Assembly (NCBI GenBank): GCA_046539845.1 | Contig: JBKHGE010000002.1 | Location: 1-64,000, forward strand | Direction: 5' to 3' | DNA length: 64,000 nucleotides | Origin: Desulfonatronovibrionaceae bacterium | GTDB lineage: Bacteria; Desulfobacterota; Desulfovibrionia; Desulfovibrionales; Desulfonatronovibrionaceae | Shown: positions 8,906 to 42,364 of the stretch, in pieces | Numbering within the stretch: position 1 is the first letter of the stretch | Layout of the letters: each line of letters starts with the position of its first letter | The notes under the pieces: generated by a model | What the model was told of the DNA's origin: nothing | The model's database searches: none | What the model saw: the letters and a program-made list of their open reading frames with translations, nothing else | Made by a program: the position numbers and the translations under genes

Positions 8906-8943
8906 ATCCTTTTGCTTTCCTTTTTTTGGGTTTTCCAGTGGGT

Positions 8944-10421: not shown

Positions 10422-10454
10422 TATATTCTTCAGGCAAAACCGGTTCTTTAGTGG

Positions 10455-10502
10455 ATATATATCGTTGGATATGAATATAGTGTTAAGGATTTCGTTCGTC
10501 AA
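10455..10502 (-). promoter_or_regulatory. sigma70 promoter of the ars operon with overlapping putative ArsR operator
   Basis: TTGACG (10502-10497), 17 bp, TATATT (10479-10474); imperfect AT-rich inverted repeat TATATTCATATCCAACGATATATA over the -10. Confidence 0.6.
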
Positions 10503-10700
10503 GTCGGATTATTTTCCGGCTTTGTCCCGCTTTTAGCGCTGCCTTTGCCAGGTGGGCGGGAAATTTGTCTTAAGGAGCCTGAGGCAGTTGGATCGCCAGT
10601 TTTGAATTTTATATCTGGACGGGACCTAGCTGGCCAAGACAAAACAAAAAGGATCAGGCGAATGAAACCTAAAATATCCATACTCTATGTCAGAGAGCCC

Positions 10701-25522: not shown

Positions 25523-25694
25523 GGCATTCTCCCTCCTTGAATTGTTGTGTTTGCCTTGATTTACCAAAAATAGATAGGCGGGCTCGGTTACAGAAAGATT
25601 TCCCGTGGGTTACAAAAAGGAAAAATTTAGGGGCAGCTCAAGGTATTATGGATTGGGCAGTAGAAAGGGAGAGAGTTGAAGTGGATAAGGCCGG

Positions 25695-25750: not shown

Positions 25751-27247
25751 TCACACTTTGGACTTTTTTAACTCGGAGATGATTGTTTTGACGATGACTA
25801 TGACCGTGAGCACCATCAAGGCCATGGCCACCGGTCGGGTGAAGAATTTGAACGGATCGTGCTGGGAGGAGATAATGATCTGCTGTAGATTGGTCTCCCA
25901 GATCGGGGCCAGAATGAATCCGATGATCAGGCTTATAAAGGAGAAATCGAATTTGCGCATGAAATAGGCCAGAAAGGCGAAAAAGAGCATCAGTTTTACG
26001 TCGAATATGTTGTACTGGGCCAGATAGGAGCCGATAAGACAGGTGAAAATAATGATTGGATACAGAATAGGCGGAGGGGCTTGTACCGCCCTGCAGAAAA
26101 GCCTCAAGCCCATGCGCCCCACTCCGAGCAAAAACACATTGGCCAAAATCAGGCTGCCGAAGATGGTGTAGATAAACTGGGCGTTGTCCTCGAACATCAA
26201 AGGGCCGGGGATCATCCCATGGATAATGAATGCCCCGATGAGCAGGGCTGCAGCCAGATTGCCCGGAATGCCTAAGGTAAACAAGGGAATCAGGCTCGCC
26301 CCGAGCACGGCGCTGTTTGCGGATTCGGAGGCGGCTATGCCGTTTAGTTCGCCCTTTCCGAAGTCTTCCGGGTTCTTGGCGTTCTTTTTGGCCCGGTCAT
26401 AGGCGAAAAATGAGGCCACCGGCGCACCCAATCCGGGCATGGAGCCGACTACCGTTCCGGCTACAGAGGAGCGCAGTATCGTTTTTACCGTCCCCAGGTA
26501 TTCGCGCAGGGAGACTCGGCGGTCCTCGGGGTTCTTGGAGAACTCCAGCGGCTGCCGGGGGAATTTTTTATTCAGGATTTCTTCGAGCTGGACAATGATC
26601 TCCGCGAAAGCCAACATGCCTATGCCCACCGGGATAAGGGATATGCCCCGTTCCAGCTTGTACAGGCCGAAAGTCAGGCGTGGCATGGCGGACACCGGCT
26701 CGGTGCCCAACGTGGCGATAAATATCCCCAGGGCCGCGGATATCAGCCCCCGGGCCAGAGAGGAGCTGCCCAGGCCGGCAATTATGGTCAAAGCCAGACA
26801 GATAAGGGCGAATATCTCCGAGGGGCCCATGTACAAGGCCACAGCAGCCAGGGGCGCGGCCACCAGAATTAGGACTATGGTCGAAAAAGCGTCCCCGGAA
26901 ACCGAACCGTAAAGGGCCATACGCAAGGCCTTTTCGCCCTTTCCCTGCCGAGTCAAGGGGTAGCCGTCCCAGCAGGTGGCAGCAGCTTCGGGTGTTCCCG
27001 GGGTATTTAAGAGTACTCCGGAGATGGCCCCGCCGTAAAATGCCCCTTTGTTCAGCCCGACCAAAAATCCTATAGCCACGACCGAGGGCATATAATAAGA
27101 CAGCGGGATGCACAGGGCGAGGGCCATGGGGCCGTTGATACCCGGGATGGCGCCCATGAACATCCCCGCTGTTACCCCCACCAGAACGAAAATAAGATTT
27201 AGAGGCTGCAGGGCGTCAATTAAGCCGGGGACTATAAACTCAAGCAT
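25751..27247 (-). CDS. tctA: tripartite tricarboxylate transporter large permease TctA
   Basis: GMFMGAIPG, YGGAISGVLLNTPGTP, GSMPGLG, ESANSA, TLGIPG motifs. Confidence 0.93.
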   Translation of the reverse strand: MLEFIVPGLIDALQPLNLIFVLVGVTAGMFMGAIPGINGPMALALCIPLSYYMPSVVAIGFLVGLNKGAFYGGAISGVLLNTPGTPEAAATCWDGYPLTRQGKGEKALRMALYGSVSGDAFSTIVLILVAAPLAAVALYMGPSEIFALICLALTIIAGLGSSSLARGLISAALGIFIATLGTEPVSAMPRLTFGLYKLERGISLIPVGIGMLAFAEIIVQLEEILNKKFPRQPLEFSKNPEDRRVSLREYLGTVKTILRSSVAGTVVGSMPGLGAPVASFFAYDRAKKNAKNPEDFGKGELNGIAASESANSAVLGASLIPLFTLGIPGNLAAALLIGAFIIHGMIPGPLMFEDNAQFIYTIFGSLILANVFLLGVGRMGLRLFCRAVQAPPPILYPIIIFTCLIGSYLAQYNIFDVKLMLFFAFLAYFMRKFDFSFISLIIGFILAPIWETNLQQIIISSQHDPFKFFTRPVAMALMVLTVIVIVKTIISELKKSKV

Positions 27248-27291: not shown

Positions 27292-27765
27292 CTAAGGAAA
27301 AGGAACCTCTAGTCCGTAGCGCATGGCTGAATATATGATTCCCACGGTGACAATTGTTACCAATATTATTGTCATCGGCCTGCGCTGGCCGCATAGGTAT
27401 TGGATCACCAACATGAAAAGGAGAGAGGCTGGAATAAAGCCTATCCATTCCATGGCCGGCATAAGCAGGATGCAGGGAATCATAAATCGCAACAGGTGCC
27501 CCAATCGGACCTGTTCCTGGGGCGCTATTTTCTGATCGGTCTTGATCCCTTTTTTCTTTTCCGCCCGATAGGTCATAAAGAGCCGGATAAGCTCAATGCC
27601 GGAAAGAACCAGCATAATGCTGACCGCAATATTGGGCAGCAGATAGGCGGGCATCCCATAGCCCGGGTATTCCGGAGTGTTGGCCGGGATGACCCAGAAC
27701 AGAAAGATAATGCAGCCCACGATCATGCCGCTGTATATGATTGTATCTCGTCTTCGTTTTGTCAT
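27292..27765 (-). CDS. tctB: tripartite tricarboxylate transporter small subunit TctB
   Basis: 4 TM helices, P..LP motif, IGFI, C-terminal LEVPFP; lies between tctC and tctA. Confidence 0.85.
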   Translation of the reverse strand: MTKRRRDTIIYSGMIVGCIIFLFWVIPANTPEYPGYGMPAYLLPNIAVSIMLVLSGIELIRLFMTYRAEKKKGIKTDQKIAPQEQVRLGHLLRFMIPCILLMPAMEWIGFIPASLLFMLVIQYLCGQRRPMTIILVTIVTVGIIYSAMRYGLEVPFP

Positions 27766-27870: not shown

Positions 27871-28815
27871 TTATTGCTCGGCCTGCTTCCCAAACCGTTC
27901 ATAGGCCTCGTGCATGTATTCCTCGGCGTACTCCTTGCCGAAGTCTACCGGCCGCATCTTGAGCTCGTCCGCAATGTATTTCCTAAATTCCTCGTCGTCC
28001 GCAAGCTTATCCATGGCCTTTTCCAGGACTTCCAGCCTTTCCTCGGGCACGCCCTTGGGCGCGGCCAAGACCACGAACATCTCTACTGATTCGTCCCATC
28101 CCTGTTCCCGGAGTGTTGGCACATCAGGTATCTTGGTCAGCCTTTCCGGGGTGGTGGCGGCCAGCAGGGACAATTTGTCCGCCTGGACATATTCGAACAA
28201 AATCGCGCCCAGGTGACCCAGATCGGCATGACCGCCCATGACCGCCTTGATGACCGAAGGACCGCCGGAGCTGGGCATAAGGGAAATGTCTACCTCTTCC
28301 TGTGCGGCAATGCGCTCCATCACGTCCCGGTCGTCCGAGCCCTGGAACATATAGGTTAGACCTTTGTCGTTCTCCCGCGCCCATTCAAAGGCGTCTTTAA
28401 GGGTCTCCCAGGGCCGGTCCGGCTTGCAGACAATACCGCTTTGGTTCAGCCCCAGCATGGAGATGAAGGTGAAGTCGTCCAGGGAGTAATTCACATTGTT
28501 GTGGTGCGGTGTATAGGTAAACGCTGCCGTGGCCGAGGTCCCCAGGGTGTAGCCGTTGGGCTTGGCTGCACTCAGATCGGCAGCCATAACGCTTCCGTGG
28601 GAGCCGCCGGGGTTGTTTTTTACCAGTAGGGGCTGTCCGAGCACGTCCTTGAGTTCATTGGCCAGCCTGCGGGTGAGCAGGTCGATCTGGGCTCCGGGGC
28701 CGACCATAGTCATGAGCTTGACAGGTCGGTCCGGGTAGTCGGCCGCGCCAGCTGGTTGGACTACCCACATCCCGCCCAGTAAAGCACAGAGTAAAATGGT
28801 AAGTAAGGTTCGCAT
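27871..28815 (-). CDS. tctC: TctC/Bug-family periplasmic substrate-binding protein
   Basis: signal peptide, YPDRPVKL, N.PGG, KPNGYTL, PDVPTLREQG, APKGVP motifs. Confidence 0.9.
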   Translation of the reverse strand: MRTLLTILLCALLGGMWVVQPAGAADYPDRPVKLMTMVGPGAQIDLLTRRLANELKDVLGQPLLVKNNPGGSHGSVMAADLSAAKPNGYTLGTSATAAFTYTPHHNNVNYSLDDFTFISMLGLNQSGIVCKPDRPWETLKDAFEWARENDKGLTYMFQGSDDRDVMERIAAQEEVDISLMPSSGGPSVIKAVMGGHADLGHLGAILFEYVQADKLSLLAATTPERLTKIPDVPTLREQGWDESVEMFVVLAAPKGVPEERLEVLEKAMDKLADDEEFRKYIADELKMRPVDFGKEYAEEYMHEAYERFGKQAEQ

Positions 28816-28910
28816 AACCCCTCCTTGGTCTAGACATTTTCAATACAGGACCTTTTAAATCCCTCTTCCATGCATTATATCTTTGATAAAAGCACAAAAG
28901 AGGAAAGAGA

Positions 28911-28926
28911 TATCGTTTAGGCGATA
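28911..28926. promoter_or_regulatory. Crp/Fnr-type palindrome TATCG-N6-CGATA, copy 1, upstream of tctC
   Basis: TATCGtttaggCGATA; same motif at 33834 and 34003. Confidence 0.7.
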
Positions 28927-29012
28927 GTTTTGAAGATTAAAATTTTCGCCTCTGTAATTGACTCTTGTCTGCATTCGGGATGAAGCGGAACTGCGCCGCC
29001 TTCGGCCCCGGT

Positions 29013-31523
29013 CTAAATCTTGAACGGATTGGGTCCTTTTTCCTTGAGCAGGGCGATTCCGCTATGTAAAAAATCGACGTATTCCTGGATGTCCCTGGGA
29101 CCGAGCCCGGCAAATATAACCCGCTCCGGATCCATGGACATGTTTTTCAGCTTGTCCACCAGATCGTCGTAGCGCTTGCGGACCAGCTCGTTGCCTTTTA
29201 CATAATGACAGGTGTCTTCCGGACAGGCGCCGATAAAGACGCCGTCGATGCCCAGAGAAAGCGCATCCGCGATCAAGGCGTTGTTCAGAGCGCCGGCGCA
29301 AGGGACTTTCAGGGCTATCACATTGAAGGGCACGATTCCTTGGGCTTGGGCCTTTTTTGCCGCGAGCCAGGCATCGTTTGCGCATAAAAAGGCCAAGATC
29401 ACCGGCTCTTCTTTGGGCAGAAACGAGGTGTTGTCCCCGAGTATTTCCACCTGGGAGGCATACTGCTTGATGGTATGATGTCTGAGATCAACGGCGGTCT
29501 TGGGGCAGATGCCCATACAATTCCCGCACTGTCTGCACTTGCCCAAATCCGGGACCGGGATTTCCTTTTCGTTGTAGCTCAAAGCCAAAAACGGACATTC
29601 CTCCAGACAGCGCCCACACTGGTCGCATTTTTTTTCATTGAACGTCGGATAGGTGGGTTCTACCTCCAGGTCCTGGCCGAGAAAGCCCAGGGCTTCCAAA
29701 GCGGCCTTGGCCGCAGATTCTATCGACTGCGAGGCATTCATGGGCTCCCGGGCGCATCCGCCCACATAAATTCCGGTCCGCTGCGATTCGGCCGGGTAAC
29801 ACTGTTTGTGGCTCTCAAAAAATCCGTGCTCATTTTGGGGCAGGTCCAGCACCGGCCCGGTTTCCAGTCCGCTTGCCGACGGACACATCCCCCCGGCCAG
29901 AACAAGCAGGTCCAGGCTGGTTTTCACGTTGCGGCCCAGGTTTTCATCCAAGGCCTCGGCCGCGAGTTTGCCGGAATCCGGTTCAAAATCTATCTGCGAG
30001 GGCCGGCCCTTGAGAAAAACAGCCCCGGTCTTCCTGGCCTGACGGTACATATCCTCGTCAAAGCCCGGGGTACGGATATCCATATAGAATACGTAGCATT
30101 TGATTCCCGGGTTTATGCCTTTTAGTTCCAGAATCTGCTTCATGGTCGCGGAACAGCACACCGAGGAGCAATACGGCAAATGGCGTTCGTCCCGGCTCCC
30201 GGCGCACTGGATAAAGCCCACCGATTCCAGTTCGCTTATCTTGCGGCCGTTCACCCGCGGGATATGAGGGTCCTCCCGGGACAAAAGTCTTTCCATTTCC
30301 AGGTTGTCCACCACTCCGGGGAGCCGGCCGTAGCCGTATTCTTGCAGTCTTTCCACCGGGTACAGGTCCCAGCCGGTGGCCACCAGCACTGCACCCGCAT
30401 CCACGGATTCCATCTGTTCCTGGTCGTTGAGATCAATGGCCTGGTTGGGACAGATTGCTTCGCACTTGCGGCAGTCCGGCGGGCAATGGTCGCGTTCCAC
30501 AACAAAGGGCACTGGATGGGCCATGGGCAAGGCCGGATGAACGGCCTTGCGTCCGAACACGGCCGGCCGGTCTACAGACCGGTCTTGCAGTATCCCGTAT
30601 GGGTCTCTGGGCCGGGTCTTTGTCTCCTTGTTTTCAGTCTCCGAAGCCCGGTCACCGGTTTCGTCTTTTTCCCCGGGCTCCTCCAGGAGCGGTTCAGGAC
30701 TGCTAACTGGTCGGCACTGTACCGCCGGGATATTATCGGTCAGATCCACCGGGCATACTCCCTGACAGGCCCCGCACCCGTCACAATTTGTGTTTACAAA
30801 CCGCGGCGCTCGGCGCACAGTGGCGGTGAACCGGCCCGGTCCGCCCTCCAGACTTTCCACCCGAGCCAGGGTGCGCAGATCGAATTGCTCCGAGGGAGCA
30901 AGCTCGAACAGGATATGTTCCAGTCCGCAGCGCGGATCGCACATCCGGGGATAGAAGCGGGAGAGTTCCGCTACTTTGCCCCCGAGACCGGAGTTCTTTT
31001 CCACCAGAGTGACTGGTTTTCCTTGCCTGATCAGTGAAGCCGCGGCATGCAGCCCGGAAATGCCCCCGCCGATTATAAGGATACGTTCGTTAGCCGGCAG
31101 GGTCTCCGGCTCCAAAGGCTCCAGGTTTTTGGTCCTGGCCAAAGCCATCTTGAGCATGACCTGGGCTTTTTTGTCCCGCATCTCCTGGTCCTGCTCAGGG
31201 TTCAGAAGGCCCTGATCCCCGGGATCGAACCATTCCAGCATATACCGGTTGATCCCTGCGTCATTCAGGAGCCGGGTACAGTACTCTTTCTGGGACGGGA
31301 TGAATCCGCCCACAAAAAGGACGCGCTCAATTTCTTGGCCAAAGGATCCATCCCCGAGCAAAGTGGGGAATGCATCCAGAAACACGTCCTGGACGTGTTC
31401 GGTTTTGACCACGGCCTTGTTTTTTTCAGTTAAGGCCAGGAGCTTCCCCATGTCCAGGGCGGCGCTTAAGCGTCCGCCCTGGTCATTGAAGAAGACAGCT
31501 ATTTTCTTTGCTTTGGCAGCCAT
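29013..31523 (-). CDS. HdrA-family flavoprotein fused to MvhD/FlpD domain (QmoA/QmoB hybrid)
   Basis: GGGISG FAD motif, YPRMCDPRCG, inserted ferredoxin, QCAGSRD...YCSSVCC, two C-terminal CxxCxxCxxxCP, MvhD cysteines (FLC, VPC, GAC...CHY), ends KGPNPFK like QmoB. Confidence 0.88.
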   Translation of the reverse strand: MAAKAKKIAVFFNDQGGRLSAALDMGKLLALTEKNKAVVKTEHVQDVFLDAFPTLLGDGSFGQEIERVLFVGGFIPSQKEYCTRLLNDAGINRYMLEWFDPGDQGLLNPEQDQEMRDKKAQVMLKMALARTKNLEPLEPETLPANERILIIGGGISGLHAAASLIRQGKPVTLVEKNSGLGGKVAELSRFYPRMCDPRCGLEHILFELAPSEQFDLRTLARVESLEGGPGRFTATVRRAPRFVNTNCDGCGACQGVCPVDLTDNIPAVQCRPVSSPEPLLEEPGEKDETGDRASETENKETKTRPRDPYGILQDRSVDRPAVFGRKAVHPALPMAHPVPFVVERDHCPPDCRKCEAICPNQAIDLNDQEQMESVDAGAVLVATGWDLYPVERLQEYGYGRLPGVVDNLEMERLLSREDPHIPRVNGRKISELESVGFIQCAGSRDERHLPYCSSVCCSATMKQILELKGINPGIKCYVFYMDIRTPGFDEDMYRQARKTGAVFLKGRPSQIDFEPDSGKLAAEALDENLGRNVKTSLDLLVLAGGMCPSASGLETGPVLDLPQNEHGFFESHKQCYPAESQRTGIYVGGCAREPMNASQSIESAAKAALEALGFLGQDLEVEPTYPTFNEKKCDQCGRCLEECPFLALSYNEKEIPVPDLGKCRQCGNCMGICPKTAVDLRHHTIKQYASQVEILGDNTSFLPKEEPVILAFLCANDAWLAAKKAQAQGIVPFNVIALKVPCAGALNNALIADALSLGIDGVFIGACPEDTCHYVKGNELVRKRYDDLVDKLKNMSMDPERVIFAGLGPRDIQEYVDFLHSGIALLKEKGPNPFKI

Positions 31524-31846
31524 CAGTCTTCAACCCGGTTTTTATAGCGGTAGCGGGTGACATTCCCGTGTATGTCCTCACAGGTCCAGGTGATGCTGTT
31601 GGTCCCCATCATGGGGATCAGTTTCGCCTTGTGATACCCAATCTGATAAGGGATTCGGGTCTCTATGGCCCCCACAGGACAGACCTTGGTGCAGGACATA
31701 CAGTCCCAGCAGTGCCTAAGAGAGCGGCAGTATGCCTTGCCGTCCTTGGTCAGGGTCATCAAATTCCCGGGACAGACCTGTTCGCAAAGCGGCTCGTCCA
31801 GAGCCATGCAGCCGTCGCATTTTTGTAGATCCACTTTGGGTGGCAT
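31523..31846 (-). CDS. aprB: AprB-like 2x[4Fe-4S] subunit, short (107 aa)
   Basis: KCDGC...CEQVCPGNLM, CWDCMSCTKVCP with the electron-transfer Trp, ITWT; lacks the long C-terminal tail. Confidence 0.82.
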   Translation of the reverse strand: MPPKVDLQKCDGCMALDEPLCEQVCPGNLMTLTKDGKAYCRSLRHCWDCMSCTKVCPVGAIETRIPYQIGYHKAKLIPMMGTNSITWTCEDIHGNVTRYRYKNRVED

Positions 31847-31910
31847 GTGTATATAACCTCCTGATAGCAGTTAATCTAAGGATCAGTGGCTTTCCCCGGT
31901 GGAGAGCCGG

Positions 31911-33656
31911 CTACTCTTCGTCCACTATGCGTTCATAGGGCCTGGTGAACACCTCGATCTCGTCCGTCTCCAGATTCCTGCGGGATTCCACGAAGCAATT
32001 GAAATTCTCGTCGTCGCGTTCTGGAAAGTCGGTCCGGGTCTGCCAGCCAGCCCAGCGGGTCTCTTTGCGGCCTTTGAGGTGATGGCAGACTATCTCGGCC
32101 ACTTCGATGCGGTCCAGTACTTCATGGGCGTGCATCAGCTCGTGCAGGGACCTGGCTTTTAGGTATTGCACCTGTTGCTTCAAAAATCGGATGTGGTTCA
32201 GGGCATAGTCCAGCTGCTGCTCATTGACCCGGTAAAACTGGCTGGTTCCCCCGGCGTATTCGTCCATGAGCCGCTGCAGGCGCTCCTTGACTTCTTCGGG
32301 GATGAGCCCGTCGTAGTCTTCATCCTTGAACAGGGGAGAGAAGACGCGTTCTTTTTCCGCGTCTATCTGGGCCGGATCCGGATTCACATCTCCTTTTTCC
32401 TCTACGAACTTCAGGGCCCCGCGGGCGGAGATTTTGCCTTCAGCCGCGCACCCGCCAACGAACTTGTTGGGATTGCCTCCGGCTGTTTCTCCGGCTGCGA
32501 ACAGCCCCGGGACAGTGGTCATCCGTTCCATGTCCACCCAGTAGCCGCTTCCGGTGTGGCCGCCGACAATATAAGGGTCCGAGCCGTATACTTCCACCGG
32601 CTGTTCAGTGGGGTCAATGGCGTTGGCCGCCAAAAAAAGGACAAAAGAGGGGCGCTCATTCAGGTAGTCGGTGAGCATGCTGTGACAGGTCTCCTCGTCC
32701 ATAATCCTGGTGTCAATATAGGTCGGTCCCCGGCCGGACCTCCATTCCTCCATGGGGGCGTTGGCCCGGATGTAGCGGGGGGCCTTGTCTCCGCCTTTGT
32801 CCGCGTAGTGTTTTTCCAGGAAGTACTCGCCCTTGGCGTTTATCATCTTGGCATTGAATCCCACCGAGACCGTGTCCACCGGACCACAGTAATCCTTTGT
32901 CCTGGCCGCCACCCAGCGCTGCTCCATGGAAGTGAATTCCGCGCCCTTGCGCAGGCCCATGGCATAGCCGCTGCCCACATTGAATGGGCACATCCAGGTC
33001 TGTTGGTGGCAGGCGGTGGAGTCCGAAGTGTAGGATTTGTACAGTCCGCAGGCCCCGCCGGTGGCCACAATGGTTGATTTGGCCTTGAATACGTAGAACT
33101 TGCCGTTACGTACCCCAAAGCCCATGGCCCCGGCGCAGCGGTCCCCGTCCATGAGCAGGGCGGTACCCACGACCCGGTTGTAGATTTCTGCGGAATCCAT
33201 GGCCTTTTCCGCCATGATCGGCTTGAGCTGCTCGCCGTGGATGGATACATCCCAGGCTCCGCGGTATTTGGGATTGCCATCCTCGTCTTCCAGGATGGGC
33301 AGTCCCCATTCCGCGAGTTCGTCCACACATTGATTGAGTTCCTGGGCGTTGGAAAGGGCCAGGTCCTCGCGTAGAGGTCCGCCGCCGACCTGGGAGCGGC
33401 ACCAGCGGACCAAATCTTCCGGGGTCTTGCCCTCCCAGGTGGGGATATAGGTGTTAATGGCGTCCATCCCTGCAGCGCAGGCCCCGGAGCGCTTGATGTT
33501 CGCCTTTTCCATGATTACTATGTGCATATCCGGATTGAGCCTTCTGGCCTCATAGGCCGCGAAGCAGCCCGCATTCCCGCCTCCGATGATCAAAAGATCA
33601 CAGTCAACGGTTTCGGTCTGGACTTCATCCATATTTTGTGGAGTTGTCTCGGCCAT
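31911..33656 (-). CDS. aprA: adenylylsulfate reductase alpha subunit-like flavoprotein (non-canonical AprA)
   Basis: IIGGGNAG, EKANIKRSGACAAGMDAINTY, HGEQLKP, RTKD..GPV, PYIVGGH, GLFAAGE, RLQRLMDEYAGG, RKETRW; AGGAGG RBS 6 nt before ATG 33656. Confidence 0.85.
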   Translation of the reverse strand: MAETTPQNMDEVQTETVDCDLLIIGGGNAGCFAAYEARRLNPDMHIVIMEKANIKRSGACAAGMDAINTYIPTWEGKTPEDLVRWCRSQVGGGPLREDLALSNAQELNQCVDELAEWGLPILEDEDGNPKYRGAWDVSIHGEQLKPIMAEKAMDSAEIYNRVVGTALLMDGDRCAGAMGFGVRNGKFYVFKAKSTIVATGGACGLYKSYTSDSTACHQQTWMCPFNVGSGYAMGLRKGAEFTSMEQRWVAARTKDYCGPVDTVSVGFNAKMINAKGEYFLEKHYADKGGDKAPRYIRANAPMEEWRSGRGPTYIDTRIMDEETCHSMLTDYLNERPSFVLFLAANAIDPTEQPVEVYGSDPYIVGGHTGSGYWVDMERMTTVPGLFAAGETAGGNPNKFVGGCAAEGKISARGALKFVEEKGDVNPDPAQIDAEKERVFSPLFKDEDYDGLIPEEVKERLQRLMDEYAGGTSQFYRVNEQQLDYALNHIRFLKQQVQYLKARSLHELMHAHEVLDRIEVAEIVCHHLKGRKETRWAGWQTRTDFPERDDENFNCFVESRRNLETDEIEVFTRPYERIVDEE

Positions 33657-33833
33657 AATCATCCTCCTGGTTTTAGCGTTTTTTAAACGCTTTCTGTGAG
33701 ACTTGGTGCAAAGTTATCCCGCTTTACCCGGTAGATCGGCGTTGCAGCCGTTTAATGTCCGGGGTCCGGGACTCTCCCTGGCCAAAATGCCTTTGATTTC
33801 ATTTCCCGTATATATTTTCCCTGCCCGGTGAAC

Positions 33834-33849
33834 TATCGGGCCGCCGATA
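33834..33849. promoter_or_regulatory. Crp/Fnr-type palindrome TATCG-N6-CGATA, copy 2, upstream of the aprA-like gene
   Basis: TATCGggccgcCGATA; TATACG -10-like hexamer at 33812-33807 on the minus strand (class II spacing). Confidence 0.7.
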
Positions 33850-34002
33850 AACAAAGAAAAAAGTAGTTTTTTAGTAAAAAGCAACAAACGCCCGGGCCGA
33901 AAATTCTTAATCAATGGGTGCAAAACTGCGCTCGGTTTATGGTCCGGCATTTTTGTCCCTCTGTCCTTTATTGTGCATAAAATACAAAAAAGCCGGAAAA
34001 AC

Positions 34003-34018
34003 TATCGTCCCTGCGATA
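34003..34018. promoter_or_regulatory. Crp/Fnr-type palindrome TATCG-N6-CGATA, copy 3, upstream of the membrane Hdr gene
   Basis: AAAAC-TATCGtccctgCGATA-T; TAAAAG -10-like hexamer at 34039. Confidence 0.7.
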
Positions 34019-34127
34019 TATTTTTTGTTTATATCCGCTAAAAGCGAAGGCACAGATTGAGATGCAGGCCTGAATCCTGCGGATAGAATGTTAGAATGTC
34101 TAACTCCCAAAATATATGGAAGGGGCT

Positions 34128-35873
34128 ATGTTTTTTAATATTACCTTGGCGCTGTCCGTGGTTATTTTTGGCGCGGGCGTGATCTGGCGGGCAGGAAGCT
34201 GGCTGAAGAAAGACCCGGCCCAGGTTCCTCCTTCGTCCGGGCGGCTTAAGACTGCGGCCGCAGCCGTGTTCCGTGCTGTCTTCAGCAGGCGGATTCTGGC
34301 CGTGCTTAAGTCCTTTGCAATGGATGTGCTTTTGCAGAAAACAAGCCTGCGCCAGTCTCCCTTCCGTTGGGTCATGCATATGCTGATCTGGGTGGGGTTT
34401 GTCCTGCTTGTCGTCTTTCATGCTCTGGATGCCGTGACCAGCAAGAACCTTTTTCCCGGGTATTATCCCACCGTGAATCCGTACTGGATGCTGCGGGACA
34501 TATTGGGCGGTTTGGTGCTTCTCGGAGTACTTATGGCCGCTGGCCGCAGACTGCAGCCGGGGAACCCTAGGCTCAAATCCACGTCCAAAGACTGGATCGC
34601 TTTGATTCTGCTGGCGGTGATAATGCTTTCCGGATTCGCACTGGCCGGGATGAAGATAACCTCCAAACAGGCCTTTGACCGCATGGAGCGGGAGTACTCC
34701 CTTATTACTGAAAAAAAGGAGTCAAAACAGCTGGAGGCGTTCTGGGCGGCCGAATATGGCCTTGAGGCCTCCCCCATGGACCGCCCCCTGGATCCGGAGC
34801 AGGTTGAGGCCGGGGCGGAGCTGAACCGTCTCTATTGCGCGGACTGCCATTCCAGACCGCAGACCGCTCCGGTCAGCTATGTGACCGCAGCGCTGATCGG
34901 ACCGGTTGCCGGTCCACTGGATAGGATCAATTTTGCCTCTTTTTTGTGGCATGTGCACTTTTTGTTTGTCTTTGCCGGGCTTGCCTATCTGCCCTTTGGC
35001 AAGTTTTTCCATATCCTGGCCACTCCAGCGTATCTTTTGGCCCGGGCCGGAATGGGCCGGGCGGATGATCCGACCGGCTCGTCCGTTATGCGGGCCATGG
35101 CCCTGGACGCCTGTATGCACTGCGGGGCGTGCAGCGAGATCTGCGCAGTAGGGTCCGTACATGCGGTTATTCCCAACGACCTGATCCTGCCTTCGGAAAA
35201 GATCGCCCTCCTGCAGCGTCTGGCCCGGGGCCAGCCTTTGCGGGGAGAGGATCTGCCCGAAGCGGTAGAGGGTATGCTTTTGTGCACCAATTGCAGCCGC
35301 TGCGGAGATGTATGCCCTGCCGGGATTGACCTGCAGAAATTGTGGGACGCGGTACGGGAAGGGCTTTTGGCTAAGGGTGCGGCCGACCACCCTGATCCGA
35401 TACTTTTATCCGCTTTGTCCTTTTACCGCGCCGGGCGGGCCGGGGAGCTGGGCCCGGCCTACGCCCCGCCCCGCGATCGGGCTTGGCAAAAGATAGCCGC
35501 TCTTTCCCCGGAGCCGGCAGAAGATCCGGTGGCTCTCCCGGCGGCGGACAATCCCGCTTTGCAAAGGATCAAATCCAGCTCCCAGTCTTTTTCCCTTGCC
35601 TATTGCTACAGCTGCCGGACCTGTTCTTCGGTCTGCCCGCTAAAGGAGGAGTTTGAAAATCCACACCAGGACCTGGGGCTTTTACCGCATCAGATCATTC
35701 ACGCCGTTTTGCTGGGCCGGCCGGATATGGCCCTTGGCTGCAGGATGCTCTGGGCCTGTCTGGGCTGTTACCAGTGCCAGGAACAGTGTCCACAGGGCGT
35801 GGCAGTGACCGAGGTATTTTATGAACTCAAAAACCTGGCCCTGGACCGGGCCCGGGAAAAGGGCCGGGGATAA
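34128..35873 (+). CDS. membrane oxidoreductase: NarI-like cytochrome b domain, CxxCH heme c loop and two HdrC-like dicluster domains
   Basis: RWVMHML..GF, WHVHFL, LPFGKFFHI (NarI-type heme b His); CADCH; CMHCGACSEIC, CTNCSRCGDVCP, CYSCRTCSSVCP, CLGCYQCQEQCP. Confidence 0.82.
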   Translation: MFFNITLALSVVIFGAGVIWRAGSWLKKDPAQVPPSSGRLKTAAAAVFRAVFSRRILAVLKSFAMDVLLQKTSLRQSPFRWVMHMLIWVGFVLLVVFHALDAVTSKNLFPGYYPTVNPYWMLRDILGGLVLLGVLMAAGRRLQPGNPRLKSTSKDWIALILLAVIMLSGFALAGMKITSKQAFDRMEREYSLITEKKESKQLEAFWAAEYGLEASPMDRPLDPEQVEAGAELNRLYCADCHSRPQTAPVSYVTAALIGPVAGPLDRINFASFLWHVHFLFVFAGLAYLPFGKFFHILATPAYLLARAGMGRADDPTGSSVMRAMALDACMHCGACSEICAVGSVHAVIPNDLILPSEKIALLQRLARGQPLRGEDLPEAVEGMLLCTNCSRCGDVCPAGIDLQKLWDAVREGLLAKGAADHPDPILLSALSFYRAGRAGELGPAYAPPRDRAWQKIAALSPEPAEDPVALPAADNPALQRIKSSSQSFSLAYCYSCRTCSSVCPLKEEFENPHQDLGLLPHQIIHAVLLGRPDMALGCRMLWACLGCYQCQEQCPQGVAVTEVFYELKNLALDRAREKGRG

Positions 35874-35886
35874 TAAGGGGAATGAT

Positions 35887-36720
35887 ATGAATTATGCCAT
35901 TTTCCGCTGCTGTGTGACCAACCGTTTGCTGCAGGAATACGAGACCGCCACAGACGGTGTGTTGACCGCCATAGACATCCCGGCCCTGGACATAAGGGAT
36001 TTCGGGTGCTGCGGCTATCCGCTGCGTAATGTGGACTACACTGCGTCCATGTATTCCGCGGCCCGTAATTTTGCTTTGGCCGAGCGGGCTGGGCTGGACA
36101 TCCTCACCGTGTGCAACTGCTGTTTCGGATCGCTTAAGCAGGCGGCTTACTCCCTGGCTGCGGATCCCGGCCTGGCGGCCGGGAGCAAAGAGAGGCTGGA
36201 AAAAGAGGGGCTGACACTTTCCGGGGAGGTGCGGGTCAGACATCTTTTGCAGGTCCTTTATCAGGATATAGGTCCCGGGGAGCTGTCCGAAAGGATTTGC
36301 CGGCCCCTGCACGGCCTGCGGGCGGTTATCCACTACGGCTGCCATCTCTTGCGGCCCTCGGATGTGGTAGGATTTGATGACCCCTTTGATCCGAGCATTT
36401 GCGAGGATCTGGTCGCGGCCGTAGGGGTGGAGTGCCTGGATTGGGAACGGCGCCTGGACTGCTGCGGAGCTCCTTTGGCCGGGACTTTTGATGATCTGTC
36501 CTTATCTTTGAGCAGGCAGAAATTGCGAGCCGCAGCCGGGGTGGGAGCGCACTGCCTGCTCTGCGTGTGTCCTTTTTGTCAGCTACAGTTTGAGCGTGCC
36601 CGCAGGGAAATGATCAATCGCGGCCAAGACACCCCTGAGGTGGTGGGCTTTGTCCAGCTTTTGGCCGCTGCCTTGGGCCGGGAACAAAACCTGCCTGTCT
36701 TGCAGCTGTCCGGGAAATAA
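35887..36720 (+). CDS. hdrB: heterodisulfide reductase subunit B-like protein
   Basis: two CCG domains: GCCG...TVCNCC and HYGCH...DCCG...CVCPFC. Confidence 0.88.
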   Translation: MNYAIFRCCVTNRLLQEYETATDGVLTAIDIPALDIRDFGCCGYPLRNVDYTASMYSAARNFALAERAGLDILTVCNCCFGSLKQAAYSLAADPGLAAGSKERLEKEGLTLSGEVRVRHLLQVLYQDIGPGELSERICRPLHGLRAVIHYGCHLLRPSDVVGFDDPFDPSICEDLVAAVGVECLDWERRLDCCGAPLAGTFDDLSLSLSRQKLRAAAGVGAHCLLCVCPFCQLQFERARREMINRGQDTPEVVGFVQLLAAALGREQNLPVLQLSGK

Positions 36721-36866
36721 TCCTTTCCCCTTCGGCCACACATTAGTCGAGGAGGCATAAATTTTCCCGGCTGCAGAAATCTCTTGTCTATCTTCCGGTT
36801 TTTGGCCTATTATTCAATCATATTGATGTAGGCACGTTATTCTAATATCGTTTTCCGGAGGAGGAC

Positions 36867-37556
36867 ATGCCTGGACAATGGCATTTGGGAGTGGGAGATT
36901 TCTTTGAGGACCTGCCGCAGGAGCGGGAGGCCTTTCTTAAGCTGGCCCGGACCCGCGAGATTTCCCGCAATGAGATCGTGTTTTTCGAGGGAGATCCCGG
37001 ACATTCCTGTTTTTATCTGGAACGGGGGCTGATCAAGATCTTCCGCATCACGCCTTCAGGCAAGGAGTCCATATTCTTCCTGCGCCGTTCCGGGGAACTC
37101 TTCGGGCTGGCCGAAGTCATGGATTCCTCGGCCCGCAAGGCAAACGCTCAGGCCCTTTCTCCGTGTCTTCTGCACGAGATGCCCTGCCGTGAATTCAACT
37201 CCTTTCTGGAGGAATATATTACGGCCACGCGTAAGGTGGTCCGTACCCTGGGCCGCAGGGTACGTTACCTGGGGGAGCAGGTAAGCAACCTCATGGTCTG
37301 CGATGTAAGCATGCGACTGGTAAAGCTCCTGGTGTACATAGGCTATGACCGGCTGCAGACCGAGGACGCTTGGCTTCGTCCGGTACACATTCCGGTCCGC
37401 CTGACCCAGGAGCAGATGGCGGCCATGACCGGATCGTGCCAGCAGACAGTAAGTGAACTCTTAAACCGTTATCAGGAAGAGGGGCTTATTGAATTCAACC
37501 GCAAAGAGATAGTCATCCTCAATCCGTTGTCCCTGCTGGAAAAGGCCCAAATTTAG
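36867..37556 (+). CDS. Crp/Fnr-family transcriptional regulator
   Basis: FFEGDP, GLIKI, GELFG, C-terminal HTH LTQEQMAAMTGSCQQTVSELL; GGAGGA RBS. Confidence 0.93.
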   Translation: MPGQWHLGVGDFFEDLPQEREAFLKLARTREISRNEIVFFEGDPGHSCFYLERGLIKIFRITPSGKESIFFLRRSGELFGLAEVMDSSARKANAQALSPCLLHEMPCREFNSFLEEYITATRKVVRTLGRRVRYLGEQVSNLMVCDVSMRLVKLLVYIGYDRLQTEDAWLRPVHIPVRLTQEQMAAMTGSCQQTVSELLNRYQEEGLIEFNRKEIVILNPLSLLEKAQI

Positions 37557-37624: not shown

Positions 37625-38368
37625 TTAGATTACCTGGAAAAGGAGCTTTATTCCCAGCCCCAGGATAAGCAGGGCCAGAAGCCTTTTTACCGTATCCGGG
37701 GAAAGTCGGAGCTGCATGAAGTGCGTGCCCAGATAGCCTCCGGCGCAGGCGGCCAGCCCCACGGGCAAAACCAGTTCGGGCCGGAGATGCCCCATTCCCC
37801 AGTAGGCCAGAAATCCGGTAAATGAGGAAAAGGGCACGGCAAAAGCGGTCACTGCGGCGATTTTTTTCGGATTGAATCCTAGAACCAGAAGGAGCGGGGA
37901 GATGACTCCGCCGCCGCCCACTCCGAGTATGCCGGAAAGCCCCCCGGCCAGGGCGCCTATACCGAGGAGTGGGGCAGCAGGACGGTCTTCGCGGTATTGT
38001 TCCTTGTACTTTCCTCCCTTGAAAAACAGCATCATGTTCCCGGAGAAAAACAAAAACAAAACGAATAAAAGCAAGATGATCCGTTCCGGAAACAGGGTAG
38101 AGAAATAGGCGCCGGCCGGGGCAATGACAACCGAGCTTATGATTATGGGCAGGCCGAGGGAAAAATCCAGCTTCTTTTGTCTGATATTGGAAACAGTGGC
38201 GCTGACCATGCTTACCGTGTTCACAAAAAGGCCGGTAGGTTTGGCCTCGGTCATGGGGATGCCCAGCCAGCTCAAAATCGGGATGAGGACCACGGCCGAG
38301 CCCACGCCGCCCAAGGCGAAGGCGAAGCTCAAAAAAAAGGCCAAGGTGCTGATGAGGGCGGTTTCCAT
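37625..38368 (-). CDS. TauE/SafE (TSUP) sulfur-compound exporter
   Basis: GGVGSAVVLIP and SGILGVGGGGVISP repeats; about 8 TM helices. Confidence 0.88.
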   Translation of the reverse strand: METALISTLAFFLSFAFALGGVGSAVVLIPILSWLGIPMTEAKPTGLFVNTVSMVSATVSNIRQKKLDFSLGLPIIISSVVIAPAGAYFSTLFPERIILLLFVLFLFFSGNMMLFFKGGKYKEQYREDRPAAPLLGIGALAGGLSGILGVGGGGVISPLLLVLGFNPKKIAAVTAFAVPFSSFTGFLAYWGMGHLRPELVLPVGLAACAGGYLGTHFMQLRLSPDTVKRLLALLILGLGIKLLFQVI

Positions 38369-38374
38369 GCCTGT

Positions 38375-38764
38375 CTACTTCCCCCGGCCGGACCTTTGAT
38401 ACAAGGGACCGGGTTTCAGCTGCGCAGCCAATTGCTCTATGCTTCCGGTCAGCCCCTTGAGCGAATCAAACCCCTTGGACAGGAGATAGCCGTAGACCAA
38501 AGCGGCCCGGAAGATAGAGGAGCACATAACTATTACCAGCCCCTGGGCGGGGATTTCGTCCAGACGGTCCGGCAGTTCGCTGACCGGGATGTTTTTGGCC
38601 CGGGGAAAATTTAAGAGACCCACTTCCTCCCGGGTGCGTACATCCAGAAAAAAGGCTTTATTTTCCTCGTAGACCCGCGCCGCCTCGGGCACGGATATGG
38701 AATGCTCGCCGGAACCGAAAAAATCAAAGTCCATTTCCCTTAATGCCTGATCCATTTTATCCAT
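38375..38764 (-). CDS. rhodanese-like sulfurtransferase
   Basis: FLDVRTREE, NIPVSELPDRLDEIP, active-site loop MCSSIFRA, GLTGSI. Confidence 0.88.
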   Translation of the reverse strand: MDKMDQALREMDFDFFGSGEHSISVPEAARVYEENKAFFLDVRTREEVGLLNFPRAKNIPVSELPDRLDEIPAQGLVIVMCSSIFRAALVYGYLLSKGFDSLKGLTGSIEQLAAQLKPGPLYQRSGRGK

Positions 38765-40698: not shown

Positions 40699-42363
40699 AT
40701 GAAACAGCCGGGTAAGCTTGTGCTTTGGATCCTGGCCGCGACCCTGCTCATTCCGTGCATAGCGGCGCACGGTGCTGAATATGAGCTGGCCCCGGGACGG
40801 GAGATGGCCCAGCAGGCGGTTCGGGGCGAAACTCCGCCTAGCACCGTTGATCATTCCGAGCTAAAGCCCCTGCAAACGGATTTTGAGTCCGGATCGGAAG
40901 TCACCCGGGCCTGTCTGTCCTGTCATAATATGGCCGGGGAGCAACTGGCCCAGACCATCCACTGGCTGTGGCTCGATCCACAGGGAGGTAATGAGACCGA
41001 GGTGGGCAAGGCCGGTCTGGTAATGAACAATTTCTGTATCAATATTCAAAGCAACGAGCCGCGCTGTACCAGCTGCCATGCCGGATACGGCTGGGAAGAC
41101 AAAGATTTTGATTTTAAGGACCTTAAACACATAGACTGCCTAGTCTGCCACGAGCAGACCGGGACGTACAAAAAATATCCGGCCGGATCCGGATACCCGG
41201 TTCAACCAGAGGAGGAGAACCCGGACAAGCCCGGAGAAATGGGGCAGATGTTCAGCGGGAAGTTTCTGCCTGCCCCGGATTTGAAAAAAGTGGCCCAGAG
41301 CGTGGGCAAACCCACCCGCCGCAACTGCGGTTCCTGCCACTTTTACGGCGGCGGTGGGGATGGGGTCAAACACGGCGATTTAGACTCGTCCATGACCAAT
41401 CCGCCTAAAAATCTGGACGTGCATATGGCAGAGGAAGGTCAGGATTTTGCCTGCCAGAGGTGTCATACCACCAGGGCGCATGATATCTCCGGGCGCATTT
41501 ACAGCACGCCCGCCTATACCGACCGCAAGAGCCTGATCGAGGATGACCTGGCGGCCAAAATCGCCTGCGAGTCCTGTCACACCGCCACTCCGCACAAGTC
41601 CGGACAAAAGGCCAACGATCACACGGACAAGGTCTCCTGCCAGGCCTGTCACATACCGGAATTCGCCCGCGCTCTGCCCACCAAGATGTGGTGGGACTGG
41701 TCCAAGGCCGGGCAGACGATAGATGGAAAGGCCAAAGTCATGGGACCGCACAATCGTCCAGTGTTCATCAAGAAAAAGGGTGAGTTTGTCTGGGAAAAGG
41801 ATGTTGTCCCGGAGTACTACTGGTTCGCCGGGGGCATAGACACGGTTTTGGCCACGGACAGGATCGACCCCTCCCAGCCGGTCAAAATGGCTTGGCCCAT
41901 CGGGGATAAAGACGACCCCAATGCCCGGATCATGCCCTTTAAGGTGCATCGGGGACTTACCCCGTATGATCCGGTTCAGAATAACATGGTCATCCCACAC
42001 CTTTTTCCCTGGGATAAGAACGATACCGCCGCCTACTGGAAGGGATTTGATTGGGACAAGGCGGTGGAGGCGGCCATGGACTATGCCGGCGTCCCGTTCA
42101 GCGGAGAGGTAGATTTTGTTGAGACCGAGTATGTCTATCCAACAACACACATGGTGGCCCCGAAGGAGGACTCGCTTCGCTGCGAGGCCTGCCATACTGG
42201 AGAGGGCAGCCGCCTGAGCAATTTGTCCGGTTTTTATATGCCGGCCCGGGATTCATACGCGGCTGTTAACTGGATAGGCTGGACCGTGGTTGTGCTTTCG
42301 CTTGTGGGCGTTGTCATCCACGCAGTCGTTCGTATAATCGCGCGTAGCAGAAGGGAGAGCTGA
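40699..42363 (+). CDS. octaheme c-type cytochrome, tetrathionate reductase (Otr) family, with C-terminal membrane anchor
   Basis: signal peptide; eight CxxCH (CLSCH, CTSCH, CLVCH, CGSCH, CQRCH, CESCH, CQACH, CEACH); NNFC, GGGDGVKHGDLDSS, WDWS, HMVAPKE. Confidence 0.92.
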   Translation: MKQPGKLVLWILAATLLIPCIAAHGAEYELAPGREMAQQAVRGETPPSTVDHSELKPLQTDFESGSEVTRACLSCHNMAGEQLAQTIHWLWLDPQGGNETEVGKAGLVMNNFCINIQSNEPRCTSCHAGYGWEDKDFDFKDLKHIDCLVCHEQTGTYKKYPAGSGYPVQPEEENPDKPGEMGQMFSGKFLPAPDLKKVAQSVGKPTRRNCGSCHFYGGGGDGVKHGDLDSSMTNPPKNLDVHMAEEGQDFACQRCHTTRAHDISGRIYSTPAYTDRKSLIEDDLAAKIACESCHTATPHKSGQKANDHTDKVSCQACHIPEFARALPTKMWWDWSKAGQTIDGKAKVMGPHNRPVFIKKKGEFVWEKDVVPEYYWFAGGIDTVLATDRIDPSQPVKMAWPIGDKDDPNARIMPFKVHRGLTPYDPVQNNMVIPHLFPWDKNDTAAYWKGFDWDKAVEAAMDYAGVPFSGEVDFVETEYVYPTTHMVAPKEDSLRCEACHTGEGSRLSNLSGFYMPARDSYAAVNWIGWTVVVLSLVGVVIHAVVRIIARSRRES

Positions 42364-42364
42364 T

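Follow-up and report, generated by a model that had tools for sequence, protein, structure and literature searches.

A probable palindromic TATCG-N6-CGATA operator and its predicted Crp/Fnr-family reader at an AprAB-like gene cluster of a Desulfonatronovibrionaceae bacterium

The window analyzed here, a stretch of 64,000 nucleotides from the Desulfonatronovibrionaceae bacterium assembly GCA_046539845.1 (contig JBKHGE010000002.1), carries a gene cluster transcribed in two directions. The minus strand encodes the membrane transporter TctA (25751..27247; PF01970), TctB (27292..27765; PF07331), the periplasmic binding protein TctC (27871..28815; PF03401), an HdrA/QmoB-like flavoprotein with a fused MvhD/FlpD domain (29013..31523), an AprB-like 2x[4Fe-4S] ferredoxin of 107 aa (31523..31846; 77 bits against TIGR02060, under the cut-off), and an AprA-like FAD enzyme (31911..33662, likely start 33656; 591 bits against NF005331, over the cut-off of 557, and 431 bits against TIGR02061, under the cut-off of 641.75). 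The plus strand encodes a QmoC/HdrC-like membrane Fe-S protein with one CxxCH motif (34116..35873, likely start 34128), an HdrB-like CCG-domain protein (35887..36720), and a Crp/Fnr-family regulator of 229 aa (36867..37556).

Exact copies of the palindrome TATCG-N6-CGATA, to which an earlier note on this DNA had drawn attention, are present without strand assignment at 28911..28926 (operator 1, upstream of tctCBA and 96 nt before the tctC ATG), 33834..33849 (operator 2, the top PWM score genome-wide at 24.9 bits), and 34003..34018 (operator 3, upstream of qmoC-like/hdrB). All three are intergenic and fall within 5.1 kb, the first in the gap of 197 bp between hdrA and tctC and the other two in the divergent gap of 471 bp between aprA and qmoC. 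The AAC described on one flank of each is likewise found, as GTT after site 1 and as AAC before sites 2 and 3. In 100 dinucleotide shuffles of the window, the word occurred 0.01 times on average, with a maximum of 1 and never 3, and a search of the window allowing one mismatch returned no additional sites. The genome-wide scan proposed in the earlier note detects 4 exact copies in 2.34 Mb, compared to ∼0.8 expected from half-site counts, with 0 to 2 copies for each half-site spacer from 0 to 14 except 6. Three of these copies are the cluster sites, and the fourth (C19:30436) is intragenic, within what reads as an aldehyde:ferredoxin oxidoreductase gene. The PWM scan of the same genome gave a single further intergenic candidate scoring over 13 bits, and the regulon of the cluster Crp protein, consisting of the three cluster sites and this candidate, appears to be local.

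The tctC promoter region contains a weak candidate −10 element, TATCAA (28883..28888, minus strand), at the class II spacing of 22 nt from operator 1, and a perfect TATAAT (28874..28879, minus strand), an alternative −10 without a −35 match, at the non-class-II distance of 31 nt, about one helical turn further. In the predicted aprA-like promoter, the candidate −10 TATACG (33807..33812, minus strand) lies 21 nt from operator 2, which would put the operator centre at −41.5. Operator 2 has −10-like hexamers on either side, at 21 nt to the left and 22 nt to the right, and may therefore act on both of the divergent units, as a single site does in the orthologous loci L154 and L158, the former of which shares the geometry of the aprA-like promoter. 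Operator 3 could be paired with TAAAAG at 20 nt or, at 73 nt, with a TG-preceded TAGAAT, a predicted extended −10-like element (TGnTAGAAT; 34089..34097, plus strand) that would place the operator at about −93.5, a class I alternative. Accordingly, the earlier note's suggestion of one site per transcription unit holds for the count, but the assignment of sites 2 and 3 to the divergent units is not fixed by the sequence; class II spacing, also suggested there, is clean at the aprA-like promoter, plausible at tctC, and ambiguous at 34003. The −10 hexamers of the window are weak, and a sigma-70 promoter search at the three operon heads gave no match, which suits dependence on an activator. Among 46 non-redundant sites, 34 have the TA of a −10-like element at spacer 21 or 22, compared to 11 of 46 on the far side, which points to class II geometry in most of them. 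The site quite probably overlaps the −35 region, with its centre at about −41.5 as judged from predicted −10 elements, and activates transcription.

The regulator consists of a cNMP-type effector barrel (PF00027, E 3.6e-18) and a winged HTH domain (PF13545, E 3e-13), and its AF2 model (pLDDT 86.9) has the Crp fold, matching GlxR/CRP at E values of about 1e-18. The recognition helix quoted in the earlier note is indeed present, as GSCQQTVSE, with Q192 conserved in all 120 homologues and Q193 in 115 of them. This helix aligns with GASRETV of the Mycobacterium tuberculosis CRP, so that Q192 and Q193 correspond to CRP positions 180 and 181; very probably, a dimer of the regulator would place one such helix in each half-site. 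The only further Crp/Fnr protein of this genome is unlinked and has a different helix.

The palindrome and the cluster are found together in dozens of related sulfur-respiring bacteria. In non-redundant orthologous clusters, the exact site is present in 44 of the 50 with the Gln-Gln helix and in 1 of the 14 with a Gln-Pro helix, most of which have drifted to TATCA-N6-TGAT(A/G). The cluster span of 356,646 bp contains 52 exact sites, and 372,307 bp of flanking sequence contain none; other spacers from 2 to 11 yield 0 to 2 sites each, so the 5-6-5 layout is spacer-specific. None of the sites in orthologous clusters falls inside a cluster gene, and they stay with the operon heads despite rearrangements (L060, L076, L087, L129, and L144). 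The six Gln-Gln representatives without the exact site comprise four Cys184 variants whose right half is degenerate (L009, L010, L012, and L164), one locus with a single mismatch (L139), and one whose operon head is out of view (L128). In a sample of 401 genomes, the regulator is encoded in 19 and the AprA-like clade (at least 63% identity) in 20, with co-occurrence in 19 of 19 and 19 of 20, respectively. Genome G044 carries an intact module with a one-mismatch site 52 nt before the aprA-like gene and TAAAAT at spacer 21, and a search of its 50-contig assembly, less 4,330 withheld bases, turned up no cognate Crp (best E 3e-30). Genome G418 retains an exact site without crp, possibly as a relic, given that its aprA-like gene is truncated. 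Two outcomes named in the earlier note as counting against its proposal, absence of the motif from orthologous clusters and its abundance at random positions, were thus looked for, and the counts above speak for the opposite. The pairing of the site with the local Crp/Fnr protein stands, and that protein is strongly supported by these sequence comparisons as the predicted reader.

The claim that a Gln-Gln helix predicts TATC, on the other hand, was post hoc, and the recognition code does not bear it out. Positions 180/181 of Crp/Fnr proteins correlate with motif bases, which, in the excerpts cited, include wTGTGA-N6, TTGAC-N4, TTAAC-N4, and TTGAT-N4, and NssR, which has Q181, binds TTAAC (PMC1274295). 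In the cluster regulators, the Q181-to-P replacement accompanies a change of the fifth base (G to A), not of the C. As 13 of the 14 Gln-Pro rows form one clade in a quick tree, this covariation seems to amount to about one evolutionary event. It also has counter-examples: the exact site persists in the Gln-Pro locus L159, and the Gln-Gln loci L139 and L140 show TGATA halves. The cluster regulators nevertheless supply a well-populated natural Gln-Gln/Gln-Pro series for studying Crp recognition.

Across loci, the module combines an importer (TctABC, DASS, or TauE) with AprAB-like proteins and sometimes Hdr/Qmo-like genes; the DASS transporters match the Na:sulfate symporter family. The regulon occurs in 67 of the 401 genomes sampled from the window's order, and further families of the phylum, several in number, have it too. 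No regulator gene besides crp is a recurrent neighbour of the clusters, and neither sat, cysDN, nor an APS kinase gene recurs within 5 kb in at least 3 of the 65 loci. The comparative evidence backs the view, put forward in the earlier note, that the transporter, Apr-like, and Hdr-like genes probably form one system. Sat is encoded in 25 of 28 carriers; the other three (G566, G044, and G290) have DsrA and lack Sat, canonical AprA, and CysD, leaving no evident source of APS there, and in G044 and G290 the module adjoins dsrAB on the same strand.

The AprA-like enzyme retains the sulfite-binding residues and has a remodelled AMP pocket. The cited excerpts on Archaeoglobus fulgidus AprA list N74, W234, R265, and H398 as sulfate contacts and G274, Y95, and H446 as phosphate/ribose contacts (PMC2211403). 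The former are kept as N70, W223, R254, and H369 in 120 of 120 homologues, and R317 and D361 are kept as well. The latter are replaced by D263, W87, and N399, with Q145 replaced by D138 and M365 by E336 (each in 119 to 120 of 120); F277 and L278 of canonical AprA correspond to S266 and V267. In the aligned AprA-like proteins linked to sat/cysDNC (L226 and L230), G274 is kept and E336/R337 are absent. The replaced AMP-pocket residues and the missed TIGR02061 cut-off set the enzyme apart from canonical dissimilatory AprA, although retention of the adenine-clamp Arg makes a nucleotide substrate possible.

Of the ways to read these sites, chance is practically negligible. By chance, a word of 10 bases should turn up roughly once in a genome, at least one copy is present in 56 of 121 genomes, and this word was picked after it had been seen; however, three copies in 5.1 kb, recovery at the operon heads of orthologous clusters amid variable flanks, and the spacer specificity refute such an origin. 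Very improbably, the palindrome could belong to another, unlinked factor, or the Crp protein could sit on it over the −35 region and repress. The well-placed near-site of G044 and the exact site of G418 occur without an evident cognate crp, and binding across −35 might equally obstruct polymerase. Against this, no second regulator is a regular neighbour of the clusters, the site drifts along with the Gln-Pro regulator clade, the 5-6-5 layout with its predicted centre at −41.5 is a Crp signature, and the operon heads gave no sigma-70 match, in line with a need for an activator.

The function of the controlled enzyme allows more latitude. It is rather unlikely that the operator and its activator stand while the enzyme is an APS/PAPS reductase, i.e., an inducible second copy that serves assimilation or oxidizes sulfite during disproportionation, the transporter's cargo being sulfate or sulfite. 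The NF005331 model that it passes is named adenylyl-sulfate reductase subunit alpha, its best PDB match is the Methanothermococcus thermolithotrophicus PAPS reductase, neither R317 nor any of the sulfite-binding residues is lost, and the DASS family and the prevalence of Sat among carriers would fit; an assimilatory role has been put forward for AprAB-like proteins, in the cited excerpts as a proposal only (PMC8477390). Nevertheless, the whole clade shares the replacement of G274 by D at the phosphate site and of Q145 by D, and the PAPS determinants K120/R121/S122 of the M. thermolithotrophicus enzyme (PMC10322725) are not kept as a set, the 3′-phosphate pocket reading A(K/G)136, W137, and D138, which sets the enzyme apart from that type. 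The clusters also lack a recurring sat or APS kinase gene, three carriers have neither Sat nor CysD, and Taurinivorans muris fails to grow on sulfate or sulfite. The latter organism has a like-ordered crp-tctCBA-aprAB cluster, whose link to the AprA-like clade consists solely of its gene order and gene lengths. Across three acceptors, the values for its aprA are 0.26, 0.67, and 1.87 TPM, compared to 279 to 751 for dsrA (PMC10507020, Supplementary Data 1), and AprAB of the cluster was not detected as protein (PMC10507020). The acceptors were sulfolactate, taurine, and thiosulfate. Such near-silence is expected of an inducible module, although it names no inducer. It bears on a flavin thiosulfate reductase induced by thiosulfate, an improbable and already disfavoured reading: small oxyanions would be apt cargo for DASS, TauE, and PhnD-like proteins, the AMP pocket could be occupied by bulky and charged residues, and T. 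muris respires thiosulfate without PhsABC, but its cluster reaches only 1.4 to 7.3 TPM on thiosulfate, with no significant change versus taurine (adjusted p 0.59 for aprA) and no AprAB detected in the proteome.

We consider it likely that the palindrome serves as operator for the Crp/Fnr protein encoded in the cluster, a predicted class II activator, and that the module imports a sulfite-releasing compound that is reduced without ATP sulfurylase. Respiration of a sulfur compound taken up from outside is the likely benefit of the cluster to the cell. The AprA-like enzyme would attack the sulfonyl sulfur via flavin N5, as APS reductase does, displacing a leaving group other than AMP, with electrons supplied by the Hdr/Qmo-like proteins via AprB and sulfite passed onward to DsrAB, a scheme that we regard as somewhat more probable than otherwise. 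With similar probability, the effector would be a small anion rather than cAMP, probably the imported substrate or its product. From the chemistry, rather than from data, the best single guess for the substrate is, tentatively, an S-sulfo compound (S-sulfocysteine or polythionate), followed by a doubtful guess at an N-sulfonate such as sulfamate. Evenly balanced is the broader proposal of a phylum-wide, Sat-independent entry to the Dsr pathway, in which an imported non-nucleotide X-SO3 (S-sulfocysteine, polythionate, or sulfamate) would be reductively cleaved to sulfite by a distinct APS-reductase-like flavoenzyme, under a dedicated Crp activator that reads a TATCG-N6-CGATA code of its own.

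The operator by itself is of less interest than the genes under its control. Singleton Crp/Fnr regulons of Desulfovibrionales were reportedly reconstructed for RegPrecise by Kazakov et al. in 2013, with genomes said to include Miyazaki F and ATCC 27774. Orthologues of the regulator are common in Nitratidesulfovibrio and Desulfovibrio, and whether the motif is already among those regulons is roughly a toss-up. Databases and papers label AprAB-like paralogues adenylylsulfate reductases or presume them assimilatory without tests, and the regulon distinguishes one clade among them through the importer, the missing Sat, the rebuilt pocket, and an activator dedicated to it. The operator offers a simple substrate screen, by reporter or gel shift against candidate sulfur compounds. 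If true, the Sat-independent route would provide gut and sediment sulfidogens with an electron acceptor not recognised so far.

Like the CRPs of Escherichia coli and M. tuberculosis, the cluster regulator combines a cNMP barrel and a winged HTH with a 5-6-5 palindrome whose predicted centre is at about −41.5, and it keeps the equivalents of R82 and R123. Unlike them, it has the helix Q-Q-T-V-S-E instead of R-E-T-V-x-R, with Q/Q/E for R180/E181/R185, and the site TATCG instead of TGTGA. In CRP, cAMP is contacted by E72, R82, S83, T127, and S128, of which only R82 is kept here, the others being L81, K91, L135, and G136; helix, site, and pocket thus place the protein outside the cAMP-CRP subfamily. 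CooA has an R-Q helix and recognizes TGTC(A/G), and the invariant Q192 argues against identity with it. CooA, HcpR, NssR, and DNR belong to the same family and are likewise local regulators of anaerobes, but their motifs differ from TATCG-N6-CGATA, and none is tied to an AprAB-like cluster in the excerpts of the cited literature.

The closest solved structure to the AprA-like enzyme is the M. thermolithotrophicus PAPS reductase (8A8O, E 4e-144), which, together with the clostridial-type assimilatory AprAB-like proteins, shares the short AprB and an NF005331 score over the cut-off. Unlike the module enzyme, the clostridial-type proteins are linked to sat/cysDN/cysC (L224-L227 and L230), and the loci of these sat-/cysDNC-linked relatives have no such crp or operator. 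With dissimilatory AprAB and QmoABC, the module shares the FAD/Fe-S architecture and the HdrA/QmoB-like, QmoC/HdrC-like, and HdrB partners. The module enzyme differs in sharing 31% identity with the AprA that the genome encodes on C50, in its replaced phosphate, ribose, and channel residues, and in its predicted cotranscription with an importer rather than with sat.

The three exact copies of TATCG-N6-CGATA reported in the earlier note are all present in the window, at 28911, 33834 and 34003 (sites 1, 2 and 3); 100 dinucleotide shuffles of the window yielded a mean of 0.01 copies, none reaching three, and a window scan allowing one mismatch produced no further site. Site 1 is located inside the 197-bp gap ahead of the minus-strand genes tctC-tctB-tctA, and sites 2 and 3 both fall inside the 471-bp divergent gap between the minus-strand hdrA/mvhD-like, aprB-like and aprA-like (31911-33662) genes and the plus-strand qmoC/hdrC-like, hdrB-like and crp genes. 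The last of these (36867-37556), which encodes the Crp/Fnr regulator with the helix GSCQQTVSE, lacks a dedicated exact site; a weak sigma-70-like match was found at 36784-36813, in a scan whose matches stood at chance level only.

The genome-wide scan proposed earlier found 4 exact copies in the 2.34-Mb genome against approximately 0.8 expected, and 0 to 2 copies for each spacer other than 6. The fourth copy (contig C19, position 30436) is inside a coding sequence and was dropped as a regulon member, and a wide regulon was rejected as well. Related genomes have a background of about 1 exact copy per genome, with any copy in 56 of 121, so a lone match is uninformative; three copies within 5.1 kb do count. 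An intergenic site with one mismatch (L198, contig C32, position 7224; 16.8 bits), lying 127 nt upstream of a gene for a methyl-accepting chemotaxis protein, is a weak candidate regulon member because it lacks TA at spacer 21 or 22. GTTATCT-like tandem repeats are a source of false positives, such as the exact match at 2140-2230 of L196 (genome G413, contig C28).

For the orthologous clusters, a GTDB scan supplied 12 close orthologues among its 37 loci, a metagenome scan its best 80 of 109, and two genome searches 18 of 18 non-own matches and 40 of 58 additional matches, respectively. These gave 150 loci with a regulator of at least 200 aa; 116 had the operon head in view and are represented by 65 loci under 90% identity. 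The motif, whose recurrence in such clusters the earlier note had made decisive, has an exact copy inside the cluster span of 44 of the 50 representatives with Gln-Gln at positions 192 and 193 and of 1 of the 14 with Gln-Pro, the window being left out. Of the six Gln-Gln misses, four are Cys184 variants whose right half has degenerated to CGAAA or CGAAG; the other two are a site with one mismatch and a locus without an operon head. Clusters contain 52 exact sites in 356,646 bp, none within a cluster gene, versus 0 in 372,307 bp of flank; all 52 have spacer 6, and other spacers occur 0 to 2 times. Gene order and transporter type (DASS, TctABC, TauE or a PhnD-like binding protein) vary among clusters, yet the site keeps to the heads of units. 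Bulk homology does not explain this conservation, since the flanking columns of 46 non-redundant sites vary, apart from a T before and a G(A/T) after the core. That all 65 representatives have a transporter was discarded as independent evidence, because these were picked for having the operon head in view. Exact matches in L019 (1 of 25 distant Crp loci) and in L226 (8.5 kb distant, where it falls in an unrelated gene) were taken as chance. In L046/L063, L098 and L100, an exact site is also found upstream of crp itself, which suggests autoregulation in some lineages. L006 (Nitratidesulfovibrio sp. 1201_IL3209, 9270-10690) has a deletion of aprAB-like, flanked by a truncated tauE and crp, and retains the operator.

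The 46 sites are followed by a TA 22 times at spacer 21 and 12 times at spacer 22, against 11 times on the far side. Spacer 21 places the 16-mer at -49 to -34 relative to the start expected from the -10-like element, with its center at -41.5, the CRP class II position. The class II spacing proposed earlier fits the candidate -10 of aprA-like (TATACG at 21), and the other two units each have alternative candidate -10 elements: tctC has TATCAA at spacer 22, yet a perfect TATAAT at 31, and for site 3 the candidates are TAAAAG at 20 and a TGnTAGAAT that would give approximately -93.5. Site 2 has candidate -10s both ways, and in L154 and L158 a single site appears to serve both divergent units, so site 3 may be an extra site added beside site 2.

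The regulator and the AprA-like clade were found in 19 and 20 genomes, respectively, of one 401-genome sample, together in all 19, with G044 as the exception. The main evidence against assigning the site to this crp comes from two genomes: G044, which has an intact module and a well-spaced site with one mismatch, but no cognate crp that could be found, and the same-genus relative G418, which has an exact site before tauE and a truncated aprA-like gene, and no crp. The G418 locus (L197, contig C50) has aprA-like cut at 131 aa; besides this, the operator and tauE, nothing more of the module was recovered. Some clusters (L063, at 8496-9194 with helix GATRTTVTE; L080; L121; L144; L151) encode a second, more distant Crp/Fnr protein; the only other one found in the own genome is on contig C63 (helix GTSQEALSR). 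An ESM Atlas search with the regulator returned generic Crp/Fnr clusters only.

In the alignment, Q192/Q193 correspond to R180/E181 of CRP; Q192 is conserved in 120 of 120 homologues and Q193 in 115. Gln-Pro loci have TATCA-N6-TGAT(A/G)-like sites positioned as in Gln-Gln loci, with A, G, T and C as the fifth base in 18, 6, 3 and 1 of 28 hand-picked half-sites. A single clade (SH-aLRT 97 in a quick tree) takes in 13 of the 14 Gln-Pro representatives; L159, an independent Gln-Pro case, retains TATCG, and the Gln-Gln loci L139 and L140 carry TGATA halves. The motif follows the lineage of the regulator. This favors pairing the two and falls short of a residue-to-base code. The earlier argument that Gln-Gln predicts TATC is post hoc, because Q181 occurs with TTAAC in NssR, according to the accessible text of Rodionov et al. 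2005 (PMC1274295).

The own genome also encodes a canonical sat-aprBA-qmo set (contig C50), 31 to 38% identical to the module counterparts, as well as dsrA; the module here is therefore a second, separate one. The QmoC/HdrC-like protein (34116-35873) has a single CxxCH at residue 241; this lies in a loop that joins membrane segments and could hold a c-type heme, which canonical QmoC is not known to have. A tauE and a rhodanese gene (37625-38764, minus strand) converge on crp; this tauE also comes after crp in L097 and L157, outside the conserved core and without an operator. At 40699-43018 (plus strand), 3 kb from the cluster, are genes for an octaheme cytochrome of the tetrathionate reductase family (TIGR04315, over cut-off) and a cytochrome b, which do not recur among orthologous loci. 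The flanking genes for a GT4 glycosyltransferase with a PHP-like N terminus (23054-25567, minus strand) and an RtcB-like protein (20250-21686, plus strand), called by eye except for the GT4 Pfam match, are unrelated to the cluster.

Alignment to A. fulgidus AprA, with residue roles from the accessible text of PMC2211403, shows that AprA-like keeps N74, W234, R265, D361, H398 and R317 (A. fulgidus numbering) and, in 119 to 120 of 120 homologues each, has G274 changed to D263, Y95 to W87, H446 to N399, Q145 to D138, M365 to E336, E141 to R134, S71 to D67 and F277 to S266. More distant AprA-like genes adjoin sat or cysDNC (L224-L227, L230), with neither this crp nor the site at the AprA-like unit. 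The contrast with other AprA-like clades comes from four aligned loci, leaving out L224, L225, L227 and L228; the two aligned loci that are linked to sat or cysDNC retain G274 and have no E336/R337. Genes for Sat, CysDN or APS kinase do not recur around the 65 loci. Sat is encoded in 25 of 28 carrier genomes; in G566 (one contig), G044 and G290, DsrA is present and no Sat, canonical AprA or CysD was found. In two of these Sat-less genomes, the module immediately precedes dsrAB in the same orientation (L223, G044 contig C7; L065, G290 contig C12). The dsrA matches in G024 (C144), G065 (C8) and G101 (C7) are each interrupted by a single in-frame stop close to where the model match ends, possibly just reflecting shorter proteins.

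From the sites, their geometry, the gene linkage and the residue changes, we infer binding, activation, effector and substrate as follows. Most likely, a Crp dimer with an imported anion would activate all units from approximately -41.5; a compound would enter via the TTT, DASS or TauE system, AprAB-like would split its X-SO3 bond via a flavin N5-sulfite adduct, with electrons from Hdr/Qmo-like proteins where present (hdrA in 21 of 65 representatives), and DsrAB would then respire the released sulfite. As a first guess, on chemistry alone, the substrate would be an S-sulfo compound. The effector pocket lacks four of five positions that, by analogy with CRP, we take to be cAMP contacts and conserves R73, R90, K91, R131 and R133, so a small anion would suit it. 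Instead of binding an anion, the regulator might sense through thiols: of 120 homologues, 112 keep Cys48, 116 keep Cys145 and 99 keep Cys191.

Taurinivorans muris is reported in PMC10507020 to have aprAB homologues but neither sat nor qmoAB. Supplementary Data 1 of that paper lists consecutive genes (TAUVO_v1_0341-0347) for crp, tctC, two membrane proteins, aprA and aprB, a cluster tied to the AprA-like clade by gene order and length only. There, aprA stood at 0.26 TPM on taurine, 0.67 on sulfolactate and 1.87 on thiosulfate, with no significant change; the protein was not detected, and dsrA was at 279 to 751 TPM. Should the tie hold, the default state of the module is off, and these three compounds are not inducers there; thiosulfate was rejected as the inducer on these data.

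Relative to the PAPS reductase described in the accessible text of PMC10322725, AprA-like lacks the K120/R121/S122 set. The literature searched, with subscription papers mostly outside it, contained no account of a TATCG-N6-CGATA operator or of an AprAB-like clade linked to Crp and independent of Sat; there is roughly an even chance that Kazakov et al. 2013 already contains the motif. In its accessible text, the DiSCo paper (PMC8477390) notes AprAB-like proteins in general terms and proposes an assimilatory role, untested there. Judged by sequence comparison, the operator is real, conserved and of a known kind, and the novelty is the variant of the APS reductase system under its predicted control.
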